61,775 nt of DNA from Moraxella sp. Lineage in GTDB: Bacteria > Pseudomonadota > Gammaproteobacteria > Pseudomonadales > Moraxellaceae. The position numbers and the translations under genes are program-made. Shown here piece by piece: positions 6,511 through 52,137 of this stretch. The stretch is taken from contig JBHAZZ010000020.1 of assembly GCA_041781275.1 (NCBI GenBank), forward strand, positions 1 to 61,775, read 5' to 3'. The notes under the pieces are model-generated. The model searched no databases, was not told where the DNA came from, and was given only the letters and a program-made list of their open reading frames with translations. The stretch's first letter is position 1. Each line of letters begins with the position of its first letter.

Positions 6511-6638
6511 TATTTTAGGCTATCTGCCACCATCTAAATAAATCTATTAATGTCGGTTATATTATTGATTTTTGGATATATATTTTCTTTTGTTTTCTGT
6601 TTTGTGATGTTTTAATGGGTTGTCATCTGCTTTATTTG

Positions 6639-6657
6639 GTAGTATGATTGGTAATAT
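6639..6657 (+). repeat. Probable integrase arm-type binding site, left
   Basis: gtagtatgattggtaatat, 18/19 identical to 44587-44605 just inside the right end. Confidence 0.65.
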
Positions 6658-6675
6658 AAATTAGGAGATATTACC

Positions 6676-7890
6676 ATGAAAACGGTTAAACCTTTATCCA
6701 CCAAACAAATAGATGCCGCCAAACCCAAAGATACCGCTTATCGCCTTTATGATGGCAATGGTTTATCATTATTGATAAGTAAACACAGTAAAATTTGGCA
6801 TTTTAATTATTATAAACCATTTAGTAAATCCCGCACCATGATTTCTTTTGGGCGTTATCCTGAAATCAGTTTAGCAACCGCCAGAAACAAAAGAGACGAA
6901 TGTCGCAGCCTACTTGCTCAAAACATCGATCCCCAAAAACACGAACAAGAAAAAATTAAACAAAAACAACAAGACAACCAAAACACTTTTGCCTTTGTCA
7001 GCCAACTGTGGTTATCTCATCAAAATTACGCCAAAAACACCTTGATGGGTGCAAAACGTTATCTAAAATACGCCAATCGCTTTTTGGCGGACAAGCCCAT
7101 CACCGACATCAACAGCCACGACATCATTAATGTATGTCAATGGTGCGAACAAGAACACGGTGGATTGATGGCAAGCTGTGTTAAAACCAAAATTGCCCAA
7201 ATTTTAGACTTTGCTATAGGGCGGCATATGTTAAGCCATAACATCGCTCGCACCCTTAGACACACTCATAAACATCACATACACGGCAACCACCCTGCCA
7301 TTACCAATCCTAAAGAATTTGCCAGGCTTTTACAAGACATTGAAAATACACAAGATGTCTCTTTTATCACCAAACAATTTTTACGGCTTGCCCCGTATGT
7401 ATTTGTCAGACCCAATGAGCTTGCCAGCATGAACATCAATGATATTGATTGGCAGTCATGTCAATGGCGCTACACCCCAAGCAAAACTAAACAAAGCACA
7501 GGCGTGGATCTTATTGTACCCTTGTCCACACAAGCCATGCAAATCATCAAAGAAACCATCGCTTATCACGGTCAAACCTACGTTTTTTATTCACCACGTG
7601 GTAAAGATGGACACATCAATCACAAACGATCTTCACAGTGGTTACGGCAATATTATGCCAACAAACAGACCTTACATGGCTTGCGTGCCAGTGCCAAAAC
7701 CATGCTTGAAGAAGTGGAGGGCTTAGAATACGATCCAAGATATGTAGAAATGCAGCTTGGACATACGGTAAAAGATGCCAATGGCACAGCATACAACCGT
7801 GCCAAATTTATCCGTCAACGCACCAATATGATGCAGGCATGGGCGGATTATTTAGACAGCCTAAAAGAGCTTGATGGCAAAACTAACTGA
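6676..7890 (+). CDS. int: Tyrosine integrase with arm-binding domain (P4-like)
   Basis: YRLYDGNGL and FGRYPEISLA N-domain; catalytic R (VRPNE), HGLR, LGH, AYN. Confidence 0.95.
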   Translation: MKTVKPLSTKQIDAAKPKDTAYRLYDGNGLSLLISKHSKIWHFNYYKPFSKSRTMISFGRYPEISLATARNKRDECRSLLAQNIDPQKHEQEKIKQKQQDNQNTFAFVSQLWLSHQNYAKNTLMGAKRYLKYANRFLADKPITDINSHDIINVCQWCEQEHGGLMASCVKTKIAQILDFAIGRHMLSHNIARTLRHTHKHHIHGNHPAITNPKEFARLLQDIENTQDVSFITKQFLRLAPYVFVRPNELASMNINDIDWQSCQWRYTPSKTKQSTGVDLIVPLSTQAMQIIKETIAYHGQTYVFYSPRGKDGHINHKRSSQWLRQYYANKQTLHGLRASAKTMLEEVEGLEYDPRYVEMQLGHTVKDANGTAYNRAKFIRQRTNMMQAWADYLDSLKELDGKTN

Positions 7891-18305: not shown

Positions 18306-18635
18306 TTAAAACACTTGTTCAAACTTTAGGCTAATCTGCCAAAAGTTACCTTTGCGCTGGCTGACACTGTAACCTTCACAAACATATTTATTTTTGACGC
18401 CAAAGGGATTGACCCAATAAAAGGGCTTTGCCCCTTTGTGCGCATCAATAAAGTCCATGATTGGCTTAATCACCGTCTCATAATCACCAGTTTTACTGCC
18501 TGACCAGATTTCACGGCGGTTGTTAATACCGACGCTGACACGCTGTACATAGCCGTCGTTATATTGGTTTTTTAGCACAGTTTGGGTGGTCTCAATAGAC
18601 GCACCCATGTTAAATTTGTAATCAAAGGTCTGCAT
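18306..18635 (-). CDS. Minor tail protein gpM-like
   Basis: DGYVQRVSVGIN, FIDAHKGAKPFYW, FEQVF. Confidence 0.9.
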   Translation of the reverse strand: MQTFDYKFNMGASIETTQTVLKNQYNDGYVQRVSVGINNRREIWSGSKTGDYETVIKPIMDFIDAHKGAKPFYWVNPFGVKNKYVCEGYSVSQRKGNFWQISLKFEQVF

Positions 18636-26474: not shown

Positions 26475-26717
26475 ATGAGTAAAAAAAATTACTATGAACA
26501 AACAGACGCACAATTCAAAATCCGCCTACCACACGAGCTAAAAGATAAAATCCGTGCGTCTGCTGATGAGCATAATCGCACCATGACAGCGGATATTGTG
26601 GCACGGCTTGAACAATCTTTTACTCATGAAAAGTCTGAAGTTCATTGCACGGACATCACAAACGCACTTGCTGACATCATGCGTGAAATCCAATCACTGA
26701 AAGGAGCTACTCCATGA
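26475..26717 (+). CDS. Arc/Mnt-family ribbon-helix-helix repressor
   Basis: QFKIRLPHELKDKIRASADEHNRTMTADIVARLEQSF. Confidence 0.9.
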   Translation: MSKKNYYEQTDAQFKIRLPHELKDKIRASADEHNRTMTADIVARLEQSFTHEKSEVHCTDITNALADIMREIQSLKGATP

Positions 26718-26914
26718 TACTAGACCTACCCCCAAATATTGAACAAATCATCATCAATCAAGCCAAAGAGCAAGGCATAACCCCCGAAAACTACCTGATC
26801 AATCATCTTAACGAATGGCTTGGTGAACGCACATTGGGCGGTGGCGAGCATTTACTCGTTGCCATATCTGATGATTTTGATGCGCCCCTTGATGATTTTA
26901 AGGAATATATGTAA
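26714..26914 (+). CDS. Antitoxin candidate for downstream PIN toxin
   Basis: ISDDFDAPLDDFKEYM C-terminus typical of PIN-toxin partners; coupled to next gene. Confidence 0.75.
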   Translation: MILDLPPNIEQIIINQAKEQGITPENYLINHLNEWLGERTLGGGEHLLVAISDDFDAPLDDFKEYM

Positions 26915-27297
26915 TGTATTTACTAGATACCCACATCATCATTTGGCTGTTGTCTTGCCCAGACAAATTAAGCACCAAAGCCAAACAAATCATCAAAAAC
27001 CCAAACAATAAGCTGTATTATAGCCCCTTAAGCTTTAGCGAAATGGCAATCAAGGTCAGCACAGGCAAACTCATCATGGTAGACAACTGGCAAACACGTT
27101 ATGCTGATCTGCTTACCCAAAAGCAAATCTATCCCATTCATCAAACGTGGGCAGACAGTCAGATTTTGCAAACCTTGCCATTTCATCATAAAGACCCCTT
27201 TGATAGAATGCTCATCAGCCTTGCGATGGTTAATAAGCTTAGTTTTATCAGTGCCGATGGTCATTGCGCCAATTATGATTTACAAGTAATTTGGTAA
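26914..27297 (+). CDS. vapC: PIN-domain (VapC) toxin
   Basis: YLLDTHIIIW, S..E..IK, LPFHHKDPFDRMLI, ISAD. Confidence 0.9.
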   Translation: MYLLDTHIIIWLLSCPDKLSTKAKQIIKNPNNKLYYSPLSFSEMAIKVSTGKLIMVDNWQTRYADLLTQKQIYPIHQTWADSQILQTLPFHHKDPFDRMLISLAMVNKLSFISADGHCANYDLQVIW

Positions 27298-27332: not shown

Positions 27333-27601
27333 TTTTTAAGCCACCTATACGGCGGTACACTTGTTACTTCATCAAGCACACGCTCTTCGCTATTTCTAAG
27401 CCGCCTACACGGCGGTACACAATTTCTGATCGGCGTGTTCATGTCGAATTAGTTTTCTAAGCCACCTACACGGCGGTACACTTGATAAAAAATTGAAAAT
27501 CCATGCTGTATCTTTTCTAAGCCGCCTACACGGCGGTACACGAAGAAGCTGCACGAAACGCTGGGGCAGTGATTTTCTAAGCCGCCTACACGGCGGTACG
27601 C
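27333..27601 (-). CRISPR. Type I-F CRISPR mini-array A: 5 repeats, 4 spacers, no cas genes
   Basis: 28-nt repeat GTGTACCGCCGTGTAGGCGGCTTAGAAA at 27333, 27393, 27454, 27514, 27574; spacers 32/33/32/32 nt; 5-bp stem, 5-nt loop and 8-nt 3' handle of Cas6f substrates. Confidence 0.96.
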
Positions 27602-28927: not shown

Positions 28928-30109
28928 TTACACTTTATCGGCAAGCGTACCATAAATAAACGCTTCTGGACGATACACCGCCAATGCCAGTCGCTCGGTG
29001 GCTCGGATTGTCAAAAGCATACGAGTAAAGTCGTCATTTTCAAAGCCCACTTCCACCGCACTTGCCAAGCGGTCAAAGAGTTGAGCCCCCAAATCAAACG
29101 CCCCCGTCAAAAATTTACCCACGCCCATGCTTTGCGTCGCTACCACAGGCACGCCCCACAATGTTGGCGATAATGTGCCTTGTGGATTGCCGATGATATG
29201 ACGACCGTTGTCATCTTTGGTCAGCTCAATTTTAGCCCAGTCAATCGGATTAAGCACATGACCACTGGCAGGATATTCAGCCAGTACCGCTTGCAACATG
29301 GCAAGGCGAAGTTGGTCAATGATGGTATATTTGGCAAGACTTGCAGGGTCAGCAAAAGCGGTGGCTTGCGGGATAATGCCTTTTAGGTTGTTGGTCAAAC
29401 CATCGCCATTTAGAATTTGATGTTCTTCCACCAATTTAAGCCCATAGGTCAGCCGTCCATCAATGTGGCTCGCCAGCTGGCTTGCGTCATCTAAGACTTG
29501 GCTAGAAATCTTGACAAAATGCCCAAGCGTTTTAACCGCCACATTTTGCTCATCAAATTTAATATCTGATTGAGCCAGTTTCGCACCTTCGCCATTTTGG
29601 GCTTTGGCGTTGTTGGTAAAGCCTGTTTCACGCATATAGACAATGCTGTTGCTGTCAGTTGAGCCTGCCATCAACAAATCACGCACCGTCAAACGGCGGT
29701 TGGGTGTAGCAATGACACCACCCAAGCGTTGTGGGGCAATCAGCGAACCTGCCGAACCATCGGCGTCAGTGGTCGCAGAAGTGATGTTGGCCTTAATTTC
29801 CAATTTGGCTTTAGCCCCCGTGCCTTGATTGGCTTTGAGCTGTTCGTATTCGTCCGAGCCTGTAAACTTCTCGCCAAGCGTACGAAAATCCACATTGTCA
29901 GACGGACGGCGTGCGTCTTTTTGTTCCAGTTCATCAAGTCTTGATTTCACTTCGTTCATCGCCAAAAGCGCTTCATCGGCTTTGTCAATGGCGGATTGCG
30001 ACAGCTTTTCGCCATTTGCCATCTGACCTTTCATCTGTTCGGCGGTTTCTTTAACTTTGTCCACCGCTTCGGCAAACTTTTTTGCCAGTTCAGTTTGTGT
30101 GTCGCTCAT
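28928..30109 (-). CDS. Major capsid protein, HK97 fold
   Basis: Coiled-coil delta domain, LTVRDLL, QILNGDG, LWGVPVV, RPEAFIYG; GGAG RBS before ATG 30109. Confidence 0.95.
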   Translation of the reverse strand: MSDTQTELAKKFAEAVDKVKETAEQMKGQMANGEKLSQSAIDKADEALLAMNEVKSRLDELEQKDARRPSDNVDFRTLGEKFTGSDEYEQLKANQGTGAKAKLEIKANITSATTDADGSAGSLIAPQRLGGVIATPNRRLTVRDLLMAGSTDSNSIVYMRETGFTNNAKAQNGEGAKLAQSDIKFDEQNVAVKTLGHFVKISSQVLDDASQLASHIDGRLTYGLKLVEEHQILNGDGLTNNLKGIIPQATAFADPASLAKYTIIDQLRLAMLQAVLAEYPASGHVLNPIDWAKIELTKDDNGRHIIGNPQGTLSPTLWGVPVVATQSMGVGKFLTGAFDLGAQLFDRLASAVEVGFENDDFTRMLLTIRATERLALAVYRPEAFIYGTLADKV

Positions 30110-31979: not shown

Positions 31980-32300
31980 ATGTACACCATCGCTGAAACC
32001 GACCAATTTATTAGCCAAGTATCTGACATCTGGACAGATGATGAACGCCTTGATTTCTTTGAATATTTAGCACAGAACCCTTTAAAAGGCGATGTTATCC
32101 CCAATGCCAAAGGATTGCGTAAAATCCGTTATTCGGCAAAGGGACACGGCAAACGGGGCGGAGTTAGGGTCATCTATTACAATATGCTTGATGATGGGTT
32201 GATTGTCGCTGTCGCCATCTACCCCAAAAATGAGCGTGAAGACCTAAGCAAAGCACAAACCAAAAAACTTGCCAACTCTAAATCCAAGTCCAAAAAATAA
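31980..32300 (+). CDS. RelE/HigB-family toxin
   Basis: GDVIP..GLRKIR....GKRGGVRVIYY, IYPKNEREDL. Confidence 0.9.
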   Translation: MYTIAETDQFISQVSDIWTDDERLDFFEYLAQNPLKGDVIPNAKGLRKIRYSAKGHGKRGGVRVIYYNMLDDGLIVAVAIYPKNEREDLSKAQTKKLANSKSKSKK

Positions 32301-32307
32301 GGAGCAA

Positions 32308-32643
32308 ATGATGAAAAACCTACCCAATTTTGACATAAGCGAAGTCATGCAAGCCATCATTGCAGATGAACCCGACCTTGCCGACCATCAAGATAGCTTG
32401 GCAACGGCTTTAACGCAGTTAAAAAATGGTGAATTTGCCCGCACGACTGTCATCAGTCAGCCCGCCCAAATCCGCCAAAAAGCCAATTTATCCCAAAGCC
32501 AGTTTGCCCGTGCCATTGGCATTTCGGTTAATACTCTAAAATCGTGGGAGCAAGGACAAAGACAGCCAAGCGGTTCGGCTCGGGTATTGCTTGATTTACT
32601 TGCCAAACGCCCAGAACTCATTGGCGAGCTTGCCACTACTTAA
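32308..32643 (+). CDS. HigA-like HTH antitoxin
   Basis: LSQSQFARAIGISVNTLKSWEQGQRQPSGSA; GGAG RBS before ATG 32308. Confidence 0.9.
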   Translation: MMKNLPNFDISEVMQAIIADEPDLADHQDSLATALTQLKNGEFARTTVISQPAQIRQKANLSQSQFARAIGISVNTLKSWEQGQRQPSGSARVLLDLLAKRPELIGELATT

Positions 32644-32656
32644 TTTTGTGGGCGAT

Positions 32657-34351
32657 TTAGGCAATCACCATATTATCAAGGTATTCATCAATATTCCCGC
32701 CACTTTGGGCGTGTAATTTGGCACGCCCAAGAGCCATTATCAGAGCCACAATGCCGTCAATCTTGTTTTCGGCTCGCTCTTTGTCGGGATAAATATTATC
32801 TTTTTTGTCCACCACCGCCACGACATTGCTCGCCTGCCAAGTCAGCAAAGGACAATCGCCGTGGGCGATTTTGCCTTGCAATACGAGTGCTTCAAGTTCT
32901 TTCATCGGCTCGCTCATGTTCTGTACTGTGTGGCGTAACTCCACCATGGTCGCCCCTTCTTTTTCCATTTCTTGGGCAAGCTGGGTGGCTTGCCACGGGT
33001 CGTAGGCGATTTGACGGACATCAAAGCGACACATAAACTCACGCAAATCATCTTTGATGACATCAAAATCCACTACTTCGCCCATCGTGAGCGTGAGTAG
33101 CCCCATGTTATCCCATGCTCGGTAACGGTCGGCGTTGCCATCCATACTTTCCAAAACTCGTGCGTCTGGCAGATAATACCGCCCATGCACATGATAATAA
33201 GGGTCGTTTGCTGTGGGTGGAAATAGCAAAATTAGGGCATTTAGGTCAATCTTTGTCGCCAAATCAAGCCCAATGTAGCAGGGGCGATTTTCAAGCTCAT
33301 GGAGTTCTTTACGCTTAGGGGCGTTTTGCCATTTTGACATGTTGAGCCACGCATTTTTCGCTCCGACCCATTCGTTTAGGTGTTTGGTGCGAAATACTGA
33401 CTGTTTGCGTGCCGAAGTCTTAGCGTCTCGTTGCCGTGCTTGCAAAAATTCCCCCGATACCGAGATGTTATAATTTGGATTTGCCTTTATCAAGGCAATA
33501 TCGCTATCCCACGCATCGTCCGTGTCTTTGCCATACAAAATCGCCCACATATCATCAATATCTAGCACGCCATCAAGCATTTTTTGAGCGTCTTGGTACA
33601 AAAGATGACACGCCCCACCAATGGTTGCCCCTGCGGTGGTAATCACCAGCATAATCGGCTGATTTCTCGCCCCCATACCTGTTTGCATCGTATCAAATAG
33701 GGTATCGTCTTTGTGTTCGTGGTATTCATCAACCACGGCACAGCTCGGGCTTGCTCCGTCCCCGGGCTTTCCGATGACAGGTTCAAAACGAGAACCGTCC
33801 GCCACACGGTTCATATTAGAAGCATTGACTTCCACGCCAAAGGCTTCTTTTAATTGGGGCGTGCGTTGTATCATCAGCTTGGCTGGCAAAAACACTTCCC
33901 ACGCCTGCCGTTCGGTCGTAGCCCCGCTATACACTTCCGCCCCAAACTCGCCATCGGCACAAAACATATAATTTGCCACCCCCGCTGCGATGGCTGATTT
34001 GCCATTTTTACGGCAAACAAAAATAAAAATCGTGCGAAAACGGCGTAAATTATCCGATTTTTTAACCCAGCCAAATGGCACACAACAAGCAAACACTTGC
34101 CACGGCTCTAAAAATATCTTTTCGCCCCGTCTTGCCCATTCGCCTTTGGTGTGGGGTAGTAGCTGGATAAATTTGGCAACCCTTTCAGCTTTGGCGGGGT
34201 CAAACTTGTAAGGATAATCCTTGTTTTTGCTTTTCTTTTTATCATCAAAATGCCTTTGACACGCCAATTTTATCCATTTATTAGCAACAATATCGCCATT
34301 TATCACATCACGGGCGTATTGTTCGGCTCGTTCTACATTGTCAAAGGTCAT
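32657..34351 (-). CDS. terL: Terminase large subunit
   Basis: LEPWQ, RKNGKS Walker A, VVDEYH Walker B, GLDLA, KIDGIVA. Confidence 0.96.
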   Translation of the reverse strand: MTFDNVERAEQYARDVINGDIVANKWIKLACQRHFDDKKKSKNKDYPYKFDPAKAERVAKFIQLLPHTKGEWARRGEKIFLEPWQVFACCVPFGWVKKSDNLRRFRTIFIFVCRKNGKSAIAAGVANYMFCADGEFGAEVYSGATTERQAWEVFLPAKLMIQRTPQLKEAFGVEVNASNMNRVADGSRFEPVIGKPGDGASPSCAVVDEYHEHKDDTLFDTMQTGMGARNQPIMLVITTAGATIGGACHLLYQDAQKMLDGVLDIDDMWAILYGKDTDDAWDSDIALIKANPNYNISVSGEFLQARQRDAKTSARKQSVFRTKHLNEWVGAKNAWLNMSKWQNAPKRKELHELENRPCYIGLDLATKIDLNALILLFPPTANDPYYHVHGRYYLPDARVLESMDGNADRYRAWDNMGLLTLTMGEVVDFDVIKDDLREFMCRFDVRQIAYDPWQATQLAQEMEKEGATMVELRHTVQNMSEPMKELEALVLQGKIAHGDCPLLTWQASNVVAVVDKKDNIYPDKERAENKIDGIVALIMALGRAKLHAQSGGNIDEYLDNMVIA

Positions 34352-34368
34352 CTGTATTTTTAAATGGA

Positions 34369-34397
34369 TTGATTTTAAAATAAAAATTGGTTAAAAT
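34369..34397 (+). promoter_or_regulatory. Sigma70-type promoter of array B
   Basis: TTGATT-N17-TAAAAT; predicted start near 34404, the first repeat base. Confidence 0.65.
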
Positions 34398-34403
34398 TTA
34401 TAA

Positions 34404-34551
34404 TCTAACACCGCATAGGGTGGCTTAGAAAAAGAAGTCCAAGAACAAGCCATTGAGCTTAAACTCTTACACCGCATAGGTGGCTTAGAAAACGGTTCAA
34501 GGTGGATTTTTTCGCCCCGCTTTGTCATACACCGCATAGGTGGCTTAAAAA
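34404..34551 (+). CRISPR. Type I-F-like CRISPR mini-array B: 3 atypical repeats, 2 spacers
   Basis: Repeats at 34404, 34464, 34524 sharing ACACCGCATAG(G)GTGGCTTA(G/A)AAA; exact 60-nt period; 32-nt spacers 34432-34463 and 34492-34523. Confidence 0.88.
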
Positions 34552-34584
34552 AAAGAGTATCATTTTTGATGGTACTCTTTTTTT
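34548..34584. terminator. Bidirectional terminator closing array B
   Basis: aaaaaaagagtatcat-ttttg-atggtactcttttttt. Confidence 0.8.
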
Positions 34585-35068
34585 ACAAAAACTGGGCAAA
34601 CGGATTGCCCGTCGTTTCGGCTTTTCCCCCACCCGTCAGCCTTACCCGACTGCTTGGGTCAAGACCCAACAGCGACCCAAAAGTTACCAACTGCCGAGCC
34701 GTCTCATTCATGACAGTAACGGCGGGATTTTTTTGCAAAACCCCAGTCTCTGGGTGTGGCACAACCACGCCATAGTTATTGATTTCATCTTGTGATTGTC
34801 GCCAACGTGCGTAAGCCGTACAAAAAGCTTCCACATTATGCAAATCCCCCACCGTAAGCAGGTCGTTGGCACACAGTTGGGGGACGACCCTTTCCCACAT
34901 TTCCACCGCCAACGGCTCTAACCATTCTGGCGGTTCAACATTCGTTATCTGGTCAAACTTCGGCTCATTTTTATTCAACGCACGCTTGCCAGCATTGCCG
35001 TTCAGCTCTTTTAATTTTGTCGGTTTGGGTTTTCGCCCACGCCCTGCGACTGTCGCAATTCCTCCCAT
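34583..35068 (-). CDS. terS: Terminase small subunit (P27 family)
   Basis: GRKPKPTKLKEL.GN.GKR, PPEWL, LGLDPSSRVRL. Confidence 0.95.
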   Translation of the reverse strand: MGGIATVAGRGRKPKPTKLKELNGNAGKRALNKNEPKFDQITNVEPPEWLEPLAVEMWERVVPQLCANDLLTVGDLHNVEAFCTAYARWRQSQDEINNYGVVVPHPETGVLQKNPAVTVMNETARQLVTFGSLLGLDPSSRVRLTGGGKAETTGNPFAQFL

Positions 35069-35589: not shown

Positions 35590-35964
35590 TCAAGACACCC
35601 AATTTTCAAGTTTGACATCAAATTTGGCAAAATCAGCCGTATTATTGCTTACCAAAATCACATCAAGACTTTTGGCGTGAGCGGCAATCAGCGTATCAAA
35701 TTTAGGTTTATGCGAATAAGCTTTTAATAGTTCAGCAAAACACTGCGCCGCTTTTTCATTAAACGCCACAACAGGCACCAATGCCCTAAGCTTATCAAAA
35801 GCGTATTTTGGTTCATAAACATCACAGCCACGCAATAATTCCGCCCATGTGATACTACTAATCACCACATCACCAATTTGTAAACTTTCAAATTTAGCCA
35901 CGACAGGAAGTGGCTGATGTTTAAGCAAATAGATACAAATGTTGGTATCAAGCATATACTTCAT
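35590..35964 (-). CDS. vapC: VapC PIN toxin
   Basis: YMLDTNICIY, SSITWAEL, DTLIAAHA, LVSNN. Confidence 0.92.
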   Translation of the reverse strand: MKYMLDTNICIYLLKHQPLPVVAKFESLQIGDVVISSITWAELLRGCDVYEPKYAFDKLRALVPVVAFNEKAAQCFAELLKAYSHKPKFDTLIAAHAKSLDVILVSNNTADFAKFDVKLENWVS

Positions 35965-36197
35965 GACCAATCCCTGCCATCATCTTCCAATTCTACACGC
36001 TCAAACTCACCGACTTGACTGCCTATTTGAGCAAATAAGCTAGGCACATCTGCCAATGTTTGCACAGGACGAATGGTAATAACCCCGTTTTCTTTGCTTA
36101 AAATCAAAGGTGTATTTTCAGGATAAGCAAAATCTTTGGGCAATCTGATGGCTTGACTGTTGCCAGCAATAAAAGGCTTGGTGTGAATGCTTAACAT
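35961..36197 (-). CDS. vapB: VapB (AbrB-fold) antitoxin
   Basis: GNSQAIRLPKDF; upstream inverted repeat gtaataac-N5-gttattac 36208-36228 and TTGCAC-N17-TACAAT promoter. Confidence 0.92.
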   Translation of the reverse strand: MLSIHTKPFIAGNSQAIRLPKDFAYPENTPLILSKENGVITIRPVQTLADVPSLFAQIGSQVGEFERVELEDDGRDWS

Positions 36198-36477
36198 GAT
36201 GTTTACCGTAATAACAAAAAGTTATTACATTGTATCGCATTGGGCATTGATGTGCAAGTCAATTGCACCACGCTCCATTTTCTCAGCCCCCTAGTTTTTG
36301 CTAGGGGTTTTTGTTGCCCGTGTCGTGAGCGACCGCTACTGACCGCCACACCTGCCACCCAATGCACAGGGCAAGCAGGCGTGTTGGCTTTCGTCTCATC
36401 AATGGTGGGCGTACCAATAGCCCTAGTCAGATTGTTTACGCTGTGGTGCATTCTGCTTTTGGTCAGAAAGCAGGCAA

Positions 36478-44549: not shown

Positions 44550-44586
44550 AAAAAAGACCCTACCGACATGGTAGGGTTTTGCTTTT

Positions 44587-44605
44587 GTAGTATGATAGGT
44601 AATAT
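44587..44605 (+). repeat. Probable integrase arm-type site, right
   Basis: gtagtatgataggtaatat, 18/19 identical to 6639-6657. Confidence 0.65.
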
Positions 44606-50415: not shown

Positions 50416-52137
50416 TTAAACCGTTTGCGATAATGCTGACAGCGTGCCTTTGAGCATGGCAGATACACTGCTGCTACAAGTGCCAATGCCCGAATAAATG
50501 CGTCCATCTACACTAAGCTGAATGTACGCCGCTGCTGCCGAATAGGTTTCATCGCCCACATCATCATCTGCGACACTTTCGGTGGCTTTGGTGTTGATGG
50601 CGTGTTCGGCATAGTTGGTGATGTGGATTTGTTTGCCTGTGGCTTTGATTAGTCCATCAATAAATGCCGATAATGCGCCATTGCCTTGACCGACGATGTC
50701 AATCACGCCATCGGGGGTTGCCACTTGTCCTTGGAAACTGACGTTACCACCTTTGTTATTGATTTGATAATCATTTAAGCAGTACACTTGCTGAGCCAAA
50801 TACGTTTGGGTAAAAATCTCCAAAAGTTCATCGTTTTTAAGCTCACGGGCTTTGGCTTCGGCTTCTTTTTGTACCACTTTGGCAAAGTCAATTTGCGTCC
50901 AACGGGGCAAATGAAAACCATAATGACGCTGTAAAATATACGCCACACCACCTTTGCCTGATTGGCTATTGATACGCACCACGTCTTGATAACCACGACC
51001 GATATGTAGCGGATCAACGGGCAGATACGCCACGTCCCAATGATTTTCGGTTTCTTGGTGTTTTTCGTTAAAGTCTAGGCTCTTTTTGATGGCGTCTTGG
51101 TGTGAGCCACTAAAGGCAGTAAACACAAGTTCACCAACATAAGGGTGGCGTGGGTGCACAGGCAAGTTATTACATTCGGTAACCACTTGCATGATTTCGC
51201 TGACTTGGGACAAATCCAATTCAGGATCAACACCTTGGGTATATAGGTTCATCGCCATGACCAAAATGTCCATGTTACCTGTGCGTTCGCCATTGCCCAA
51301 CAGCGTGCCTTCAATACGGTCAGCCCCCGCAAGCAATCCAAGCTCGGACGCTGCCACCGCACAGCCACGGTCATTGTGGGTATGTAGGCTGACAATCACG
51401 TCTTTGCGGCATTTTAGATGACGACAAAAATATTCTACTTGGTCAGCATATAAATTTGGCGTACTGGCTTCTACCGTGGCAGGCAAATTTAAAATGACTT
51501 TTTGACCGTTTTGTGGCTGCCAAACATCACACACCGCTTCACACACTTCAATGGCAAAATCGGTTTCGGTTTGGCTAAAGCTTTCGGGGGAATACTGAAA
51601 AATCCATTCGGTACCGGTATGACCTTTGGCAAGGTCTCTGACCAATGTCGCCCCATGAATGGCGATGTCCTTAATGCCTTGTTTATCTAGCTTATAAACC
51701 TTATCACGTTGGACTTTTGAAGTGGAATTATACACATGAACGATGGCACGTTTTGCCCCTTGCAAGGCTTCAAAGGTGCGCTCAATCAAATGCTCACGAG
51801 CCTGCACCAGCACCTGCAAAGTTACATCATCAGGCACATGACCGCCTTCAATCAACAAACGGGCAAAATCAAACTCCACTTGCGCCGCCGACGGAAAGCC
51901 GATTTCAATTTCTTTAAAGCCGACCGCCACCAACAATTTAAAAAAGCGTAATTTTTGTTCAATGGTCATGGGGTCAATCAAAGCTTGGTTGCCATCTCGC
52001 AAATCCACGCTTGCCCAAATGGGGGCTTTGGTAATGCGTTTGTCGCACCAAGTCCGATCAGGCAGGTGTGGCGCAAATTCAAAAGGACGATATTTGGTGT
52101 GGTCAAATGCTGGATTTTTTGGGGTAATGTGTGGCAT
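50416..52137 (-). CDS. leuA: 2-isopropylmalate synthase
   Basis: DLRDGNQAL, HTHNDRG, GNGERTGN, RINSQSGKGG. Confidence 0.96.
   Translation of the reverse strand: MPHITPKNPAFDHTKYRPFEFAPHLPDRTWCDKRITKAPIWASVDLRDGNQALIDPMTIEQKLRFFKLLVAVGFKEIEIGFPSAAQVEFDFARLLIEGGHVPDDVTLQVLVQAREHLIERTFEALQGAKRAIVHVYNSTSKVQRDKVYKLDKQGIKDIAIHGATLVRDLAKGHTGTEWIFQYSPESFSQTETDFAIEVCEAVCDVWQPQNGQKVILNLPATVEASTPNLYADQVEYFCRHLKCRKDVIVSLHTHNDRGCAVAASELGLLAGADRIEGTLLGNGERTGNMDILVMAMNLYTQGVDPELDLSQVSEIMQVVTECNNLPVHPRHPYVGELVFTAFSGSHQDAIKKSLDFNEKHQETENHWDVAYLPVDPLHIGRGYQDVVRINSQSGKGGVAYILQRHYGFHLPRWTQIDFAKVVQKEAEAKARELKNDELLEIFTQTYLAQQVYCLNDYQINNKGGNVSFQGQVATPDGVIDIVGQGNGALSAFIDGLIKATGKQIHITNYAEHAINTKATESVADDDVGDETYSAAAAYIQLSVDGRIYSGIGTCSSSVSAMLKGTLSALSQTV

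Follow-up and report, generated by a model that had tools for sequence, protein, structure and literature searches.

A mini-array of type I-F at the terS–terL junction of a Moraxella prophage and its match to terL alleles of sister phages

A small CRISPR array of type I-F (array B), consisting of three repeats and two spacers, is located between the terminase genes terS and terL of a Moraxella prophage, which raises the question of what a spacer resembling the neighboring gene is directed against and why it is found at this place. The first-pass annotation of the locus had proposed that the spacer was derived from terL of a closely related phage, that it served to destroy such phages by means of host Cas proteins, and that the array and a resistant terL allele could be inherited together.

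Array B and the resident terL site

The window, i.e., the whole stretch of 61,775 nucleotides analyzed, is contig C20 of a 2.0-Mb Moraxellaceae assembly (G000, completeness 90.5%). It contains a prophage of approximately 38 kb (6638–44604), delimited by candidate att repeats (6638–6656 and 44586–44604, 18 of 19 positions identical), with an integrase gene (6676–7890) and genes for lysis, tail, head and terminase proteins; judging by the gene order, we read the prophage as HK97-like. The gene for the terminase large subunit, terL (32657–34351, minus strand; 564 aa; PHROG 9, E = 7e-175), holds the resident, resistant-type site considered below, and terS, encoding the small subunit, is situated at 34583–35068 on the same strand (PHROG 83). 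Among named records, the terminase region was nearest to Moraxella phages. The region was present in pig and oral metagenome runs of one study, which may be the source of the sequence, and partially in runs of other pig, bovine and sheep studies; the single RNA run with the region contained it at a share of 0.05. Three toxin–antitoxin-like modules were observed inside the prophage (31980–32643, 26475–27297 and 35590–36200), namely, RelE-like with HTH, Arc-like with PIN, and VapC-like, and an anti-CRISPR gene might conceivably be among the several small ORFs at 41.9–44.3 kb. A host spacer of genome G151 matched the tail region of the prophage (18463–18494, minus strand) at 29 of 32 positions, but next to GT instead of CC.

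Array B is oriented antisense to the late operon, and the terS–terL insert of 235 bp contains no nuclease gene. The short leader (approximately 50 bp) includes a sigma70-like promoter (34369–34404; two sites found versus 0.5 ± 0.6 in shuffled sequences), followed, likewise on the plus strand, by repeat 1 (34403–34431; 29 nt, degenerate, with one extra base), spacer B1 (34432–34463; 32 nt, without a known target), repeat 2 (34464–34491; 28 nt, with a 4-bp hairpin), spacer B2 (34492–34523; 32 nt, the guide matching sister terL alleles) and the terminal repeat 3 (34524–34551; 28 nt, hairpin intact). A 17-pair hairpin with a subsequent T run (34548–34584, plus strand; z = −7.95) is likely the terminator; it was not flagged by the consensus scan. 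The repeats are of type I-F, repeat 2 being identical to the repeat of the long host array of G145, a genome that has Csy3, and differing from the host array repeat of G074 at one position (27/28). Csy3 was found in 20 of the 41 genomes of the genus, and, as far as repeat sequences allow it to be judged, array B suits hosts of this genus. Cas families were absent from the matches listed for 48 scanned ORFs (46 of the prophage region, from the integrase to the right end, and two flanking), and genome-wide searches for Cas1, Csy3 and Csy4 gave no match inside the window.

The leader of array B was near-identical to that of an array at the portal–protease junction of the related prophage L010. 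The long upstream block common to host leaders, which we take to be an IHF site, was absent from the mini-array leaders. Integration in type I-F systems is reported to require IHF and leader motifs (10.1101/2023.05.26.542337), and new spacers therefore probably reach the mini-arrays by recombination. It was also observed that the leader adjoins the terL start codon in the window (34340–34360) and the protease start in L010 (8190–8215), and that the N-terminal start of the window TerL is unlike that of the TerL of its relatives and more like that of the protease; possibly the cassette changed junctions together with the translation start. At the terS–terL junction of G074, a 1.9-kb insert bearing an antirepressor gene was present (L114–L115, G074:C1, about 1746500–1748470), which marks this junction as an insertion hot spot. 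The same short leader occurred in a one-spacer array of a Mu-like prophage (L255:8837–8925, G204:C24), whose spacer had no adjacent target (best 17/32).

Spacer B2 aligned without gaps to a terL site (34102–34133, plus strand) at 22 of 32 positions, the distance from the start of array B to the site being 270 bp. The mismatches (positions 5, 8, 10–14, 17, 29 and 30) include two in the seed (5 and 8) and leave only four contiguous PAM-proximal matches. Six codons differ between the spacer and the site, four of them synonymously, the remaining changes being R>K and F>H, and the CC at the PAM position (34100–34101, plus strand) is the complement of the GG in the Trp84 codon of terL. These particulars, including the seed mismatches in the carrier's own allele, had been given in the first-pass annotation and were all recovered from the sequence. 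CC is the PAM of I-F1 systems (10.1101/2023.03.03.530964); our own tally, in which CC accompanied two of four matches from 306 host spacers, was small and underpowered.

On its own, the home match is at chance level: 22/32 to B2 was reached at four sites in the 2.0-Mb genome when both strands were counted. Within the 37.8-kb prophage, no CC site outscored the resident terL site for B2, and 200 shuffles of the spacer gave a best score of 21 at any CC site; meanwhile, an unrelated site at a distance of 4.4 kb gave 22 for spacer B1 as well, without sibling support. The shuffle null is thus lenient, and only the matches in sister phages carry weight. The best match of B2 among the 306 host spacers was 16/32. 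As for B1, no target was found in 150 genomes of the family when three mismatches were tolerated (16 of the 41 genus genomes sampled) or by the PAM-plus-seed pattern in IMG/VR, and none that was credible in 50,697 phage records; a match of 25/32 to a host gene (50836–50867) was without CC and was taken as chance.

The prophage contains a second array, array A (27333–27601, minus strand), with five I-F repeats of another type and four spacers, which is co-oriented with the late operon and has an AT-rich promoter-like leader and a terminal hairpin. None of its four spacers had an adjacent target, and the search of phage records yielded no target for them: A1–A3 were unmatched, and the likeness of A4 to a site for the major tail protein in more distantly related Moraxellaceae phages, which exists at the protein level (best 24/32 with CC), was not accepted as firm. 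The ORF at 26914 beside array A, considered as an anti-CRISPR candidate, proved to be a PIN/VapC protein.

Sister terL alleles matched by spacer B2

Homologous terL sites were read from 113 loci, which gave 108 sites. Two of these, L085 (the locus of G074) and L010, matched B2 at 30 of 32 positions with CC and an intact seed, the only mismatches being at positions 26 and 30, so that alleles better than the resident one exist, as the first-pass annotation had anticipated. The next-best terL site after these two reached 24/32; L164, which also matched at 30/32, was 99.6% identical to L010 and was not counted separately. The TerL identity to the window was 93% for G074 and 90–94% for L010, and the terS–terL junction of both of these sensitive phages was without an array. 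Given matches of this quality in sister prophages, B2 stems from terL, and its origin from closely related phages, the central proposal of the first pass, is supported by the aligned alleles. In the Mcat phages of M. catarrhalis, B2 matched only at 22–23/32 (two records), and terS and terL abutted.

The resident allele had been regarded in the first pass as recoded in connection with the array, which was not borne out. In two of the four close relatives, G126 and G044 (L002), the terS–terL junction is without an array, yet the site is of the resident type (29/32 and 26/32 to the resident sequence, respectively, and 21 to B2 in both). The resident type is accordingly best read from these alleles as a standing dimorphism in the group, seen in the protein as IHLEP versus IFLE[P/A]. 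The site holds six of the 24 bases supporting this split, compared with five or fewer in any 32 nt for the other nine splits (the split itself was chosen from the site). Within terL, no patch is more sharply dimorphic than the B2 site, whereas its total divergence (10/32) falls only within the top 4–9% of terL windows. Close to both sides of the site, the window and L010 share identical runs of 53–56 nt, yet they differ at 10 of 32 positions inside it. The terL gene is a mosaic among all five phages, which indicates that recombination is frequent.

It had further been supposed that the PAM at this site cannot be lost silently. CC was indeed kept in 105 of the 108 homologous sites, but this constrains escape little: the wobble bases at seed positions 2, 5 and 8 make silent escape through the seed easy, and the locked PAM is no trap.

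Mini-arrays at other head-gene borders and in metagenomes

Five B-type mini-arrays were found in four of the five close prophages, all of them situated at borders of head genes and oriented against the late genes, and five of their seven spacers matched the bordering gene beside CC at a distance of 49–717 bp. One of these five is B2. A spacer of G126 matches the major capsid gene 57 bp away (25/32 at home), and to the corresponding site of the present window (28952–28983, plus strand) its match is 30/32, next to CC and without seed mismatches. A spacer of G044 matches terL at a distance of 717 bp (26 at home, 27 in G126), and L010 has two such spacers, directed to the portal gene (27 at home, 30 in G126; 143 bp) and to the end of terL (24 at home, 26 in G126; 49 bp). 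The home sites of all five adjacent spacers have one or two seed mismatches each, and for all five, some sister phage has a site with CC, an intact seed and 26–30 matches of 32; for the L010 portal spacer, the seed-intact sister is G074 at 26, the 30/32 site of G126 being mismatched at position 5. The targeting forms a chain in which the window is directed to G074 and L010, L010 to G126, and G126 to the window. Shuffled spacers of the arrays of the group gave best scores of 20–21. The chance of finding five of seven spacers within 800 bp of their targets was 3e-6 over the whole prophage and 5e-3 over the shared head module; when the four spacers of array A were counted (5/11), the corresponding values were 5e-5 and 0.05.

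At the terL 3′ end, L010 and G044 have cassettes in the same place and with the same repeats and terminator, while their spacers are different and both directed to terL. One leader type occurs at two junctions, with each array aimed at its own neighbor. All five adjacent spacers are on the same strand as the home site, and four of the five arrays lie on the PAM-proximal side of the target, the exception being array B, which is PAM-distal. In L010 and G044, the HTH gene of a toxin–antitoxin-like module directly precedes the mini-array at the terL 3′ end, and its promoter may serve the array.

Adjacent targeting is not a general feature of short I-F arrays: on viral contigs, 11 further arrays with 26 spacers gave no case of it, and neither did five spacers from genome loci, some of these arrays possibly being host arrays. 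A search for more carriers in 38 metagenome and 34 genome loci revealed arrays in only three phages, all already known. An apparent locking of PAMs in Trp/Gly/Met-X contexts (5/5 PAMs; baseline 182/350, p about 0.04) was given no weight, as a PAM that is conserved is more readily found and one of the five was lost by an amino acid change in three relatives.

The population data consisted of Logan contigs, which are unphased. Run X1 contained array-bearing contigs identical to the window together with two array-less junctions, and run X17 contained an array-less junction. In the bovine run X6, a contig bridged terL, the cassette and terS, without repeat 1 and B1 (joint 34403–34465). Over 34465–34600, it differed from the window by six bases and two gaps, including an A-U to G-C compensatory pair in the terminator (34562/34570); none of the differences fell among the 16 spacer positions listed, and B2 appears to be essentially kept. 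The bridging contig had 10 differences in 192 positions over 34212–34403, and the overlapping contig across the site (34100–34238) had four in 139, compared with 18–25 in array-less relatives, whereas terS differed at 50 of 338 positions, similar to the array-less G074 (45) and L010 (46). The X6 tract was joined from unphased unitigs by a 30-nt overlap, with depths of 11.6 and 13.7. This pattern fits a transfer of the array and the resistant allele as a unit into another terS background, and it would also fit shared ancestry with neutral exchange of terS. In the sheep run X14, the leader was accompanied by a resident-like allele (11 differences over 34098–34392), B2 lying outside the coverage. 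Further terL 3′ cassettes with other spacers were seen in runs X4 and X12, and a repeat-like match was noted in X4 beside an apparent portal start.

Possible roles of the cassettes

It is very probable that the evolved role of the array is to load into a host I-F complex, cut sister phages and spare the carrier. Array B would be transcribed antisense to the late operon, its transcript would be processed by Cas6f at repeats 2 and 3 and loaded into the host Cascade, and sister phages would be cut while the carrier would escape through its seed mismatches, as predicted from the seed rules of type I systems; the same seed rule holds for type I-F. The rule was taken from I-E data (PMC6897959). That the place of the array beside terL is explained by co-inheritance under such cutting is the explanation toward which we incline, with some reserve. 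The damage caused by Cas3 would be repaired from carrier DNA, with the resident prophage as the template, or recombinants with carrier DNA would be selected; short tracts would give resistant phages without an array, such as G126 and G044, and long tracts would bring the array along. Such a process would amount to localized marker exclusion with a borrowed nuclease. Cas3 cuts are reported to promote homologous repair when a template is present, in endogenous systems as well (10.1101/860999), and CRISPR pressure is reported to select chimeric phages (PMC4453577). The occurrence of the resistant allele without array B in two of the four relatives counts against co-inheritance, and the same may be said of the geometry, as I-E Cas3 degrades mainly in one direction (PMC6897959) and array B lies on the opposite, PAM-distal side. 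A more far-reaching reading, which we put forward tentatively and hold to be somewhat less probable than its negation, is that the cassettes are RNA-only homing elements of approximately 200 bp (promoter, one guide and terminator) borrowing the host Cas3. The neighboring gene of the sisters would be cut, the cassette would be copied in with the resistant allele, and cassettes would move between head-gene borders and be re-armed against each new neighbor. Such a drive gains indirect support from the five arrays with adjacent targets and from the tract in which array and allele are shared, although passive linkage would lead one to expect much the same.

The most serious competitor, although unlikely, is superinfection exclusion only, in which sisters are killed, nothing is converted, and adjacency is passive: an array far from its resistant allele would recombine next to a sensitive one and destroy its own genome. 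For viral mini-arrays, exclusion is the role described in the literature (PMC6858448, PMC11656645, PMC7099407), and under it, too, one would expect adjacency, a home site with seed mismatches and a shared tract, i.e., nearly the same genomes as under homing; the frequent recombination evident from the terL mosaicism and the PAM-distal position of array B agree with it. The PAM-proximal position of the other four arrays is not predicted by exclusion, which is a weak point at n = 5, and cutting near a homologous prophage should in any case give recombinants and hence some biased inheritance (10.1101/860999, PMC4453577).

It is decidedly improbable that the locus is a scar of self-attack, in which the spacer would have been taken from a former terL allele of the phage itself, escape would have occurred by import of an existing patch, and sisters would now be hit only as a side effect. 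The strand agreement of all five adjacent spacers with their home sites, the identical runs of the window and L010 on both sides of the differing site, and the presence of the resistant patch elsewhere (G126, G044) are in keeping with such an origin. Nevertheless, capture in place is doubtful with a mini-leader that lacks the upstream block needed for I-F integration (10.1101/2023.05.26.542337), five independent events would be costly, and a diverged bovine phage has retained the cassette, with a compensatory change in the terminator.

A regulatory or decoy RNA, silencing terL in the lysogen by pairing or soaking up Cas proteins through its repeats as an RNA anti-CRISPR, has very little probability: prophage mini-arrays repressing transcription via I-F1 are known, including in Moraxella osloensis, and the resident site keeps its CC, but regulatory guides conserve the seed (10.1101/2023.03.03.530964), whereas B2 has only the four contiguous PAM-proximal matches to a site inside terL and not at a promoter, and its near-perfect match is to sisters and not to self.

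The host of the present prophage bears on the last possibility, namely, that the array was active in a different lineage of Moraxella and is carried here as an inactive passenger. The use of host Csy and Cas2-3 proteins, assumed in the first pass, found no support in G000: its type I-F cas1 is cut off by a contig end (G000:C44:1–648, L001), and no Csy3, Csy4, Cas2-3 or host array was detected in this 90.5% complete assembly. The cas1f gene was observed directly behind a transporter gene with no array upstream, in contrast to the nearest relatives, and the nearest Cas1 is that of G179 (95%), whose operon has a repeat differing from repeat 2 at six bases. G074, which carries the sensitive allele, encodes an I-F2 system. 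These features of G000 are what a passenger would show, but the assembly is incomplete, with cas1f running off the contig end, and the argument concerns present activity and not the evolved role, for which this account is barely probable.

The class of viral mini-arrays is already known, and the present locus is a well-documented further case. Medvedeva et al. (2019) reported that mini-array spacers of SPV1 and SPV2 match relatives near the array, with the site of the carrier mutated; in the same paper, the proximity of viral mini-arrays to their targets is called unexplained, and Faure et al. (2019) are cited for phage arrays targeting adjacent genes (PMC6858448). The class has been treated in a review and by modeling (PMC11656645, PMC7099407). 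Array B has in common with its members the small number of spacers (one or two), the absence of cas genes, repeats of a type seen in host arrays (here those of G145 and G074), targets that lie in related viruses and near the array, and an altered site in the carrier, and its promoter-sized leader is as in reported phage arrays and unlike archaeal ones. It differs in that five I-F cassettes occur in one group of bacterial temperate phages, each directed to the bordering head gene, with replacement of spacers at one site while the target gene stays the same, and with one leader type at two junctions. Small prophage units of I-F repeats, known from Moraxella, are also found among crlRNA mini-arrays and RNA anti-CRISPRs (10.1101/2023.03.03.530964; PMC10651486). 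A crlRNA, however, matches a cas promoter by the seed only (10.1101/2023.03.03.530964), in contrast to a full-length spacer directed to the coding sequence of sisters, and RNA anti-CRISPRs are solitary repeats, whereas array B has full-length spacers between repeats.

The closest parallel to homing is given by the free-standing endonucleases SegF, SegG and MobE of T-even phages, which carry out intronless homing and marker exclusion; like array B, they are intergenic, beside a conserved gene, with their own allele resistant, and their cleavage site is hundreds of bases off, so that inheritance needs resection reaching the flanking homology (PMC2988022). Array B encodes no nuclease; its specificity would lie in a 32-nt guide and the cut would be made by the host Cas3, and it may work like a homing endonuclease without being a member of that group. 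No proposal of homing for mini-arrays was found in the literature covered, which took in few subscription papers or supplementary tables, and these loci may already be listed in supplementary mini-array tables.

In this phage group, five independent cassettes exist alongside sensitive and resistant alleles that have been identified, and relatives with I-F systems are in culture, which makes the question of proximity directly testable. If inheritance is not biased, array B is an ordinary phage-against-phage array. If it is, array B would represent a naturally occurring homing element that consists of a guide alone and that shapes the mosaicism of conserved phage head genes, and homing would explain why viral mini-arrays lie so close to what they target.
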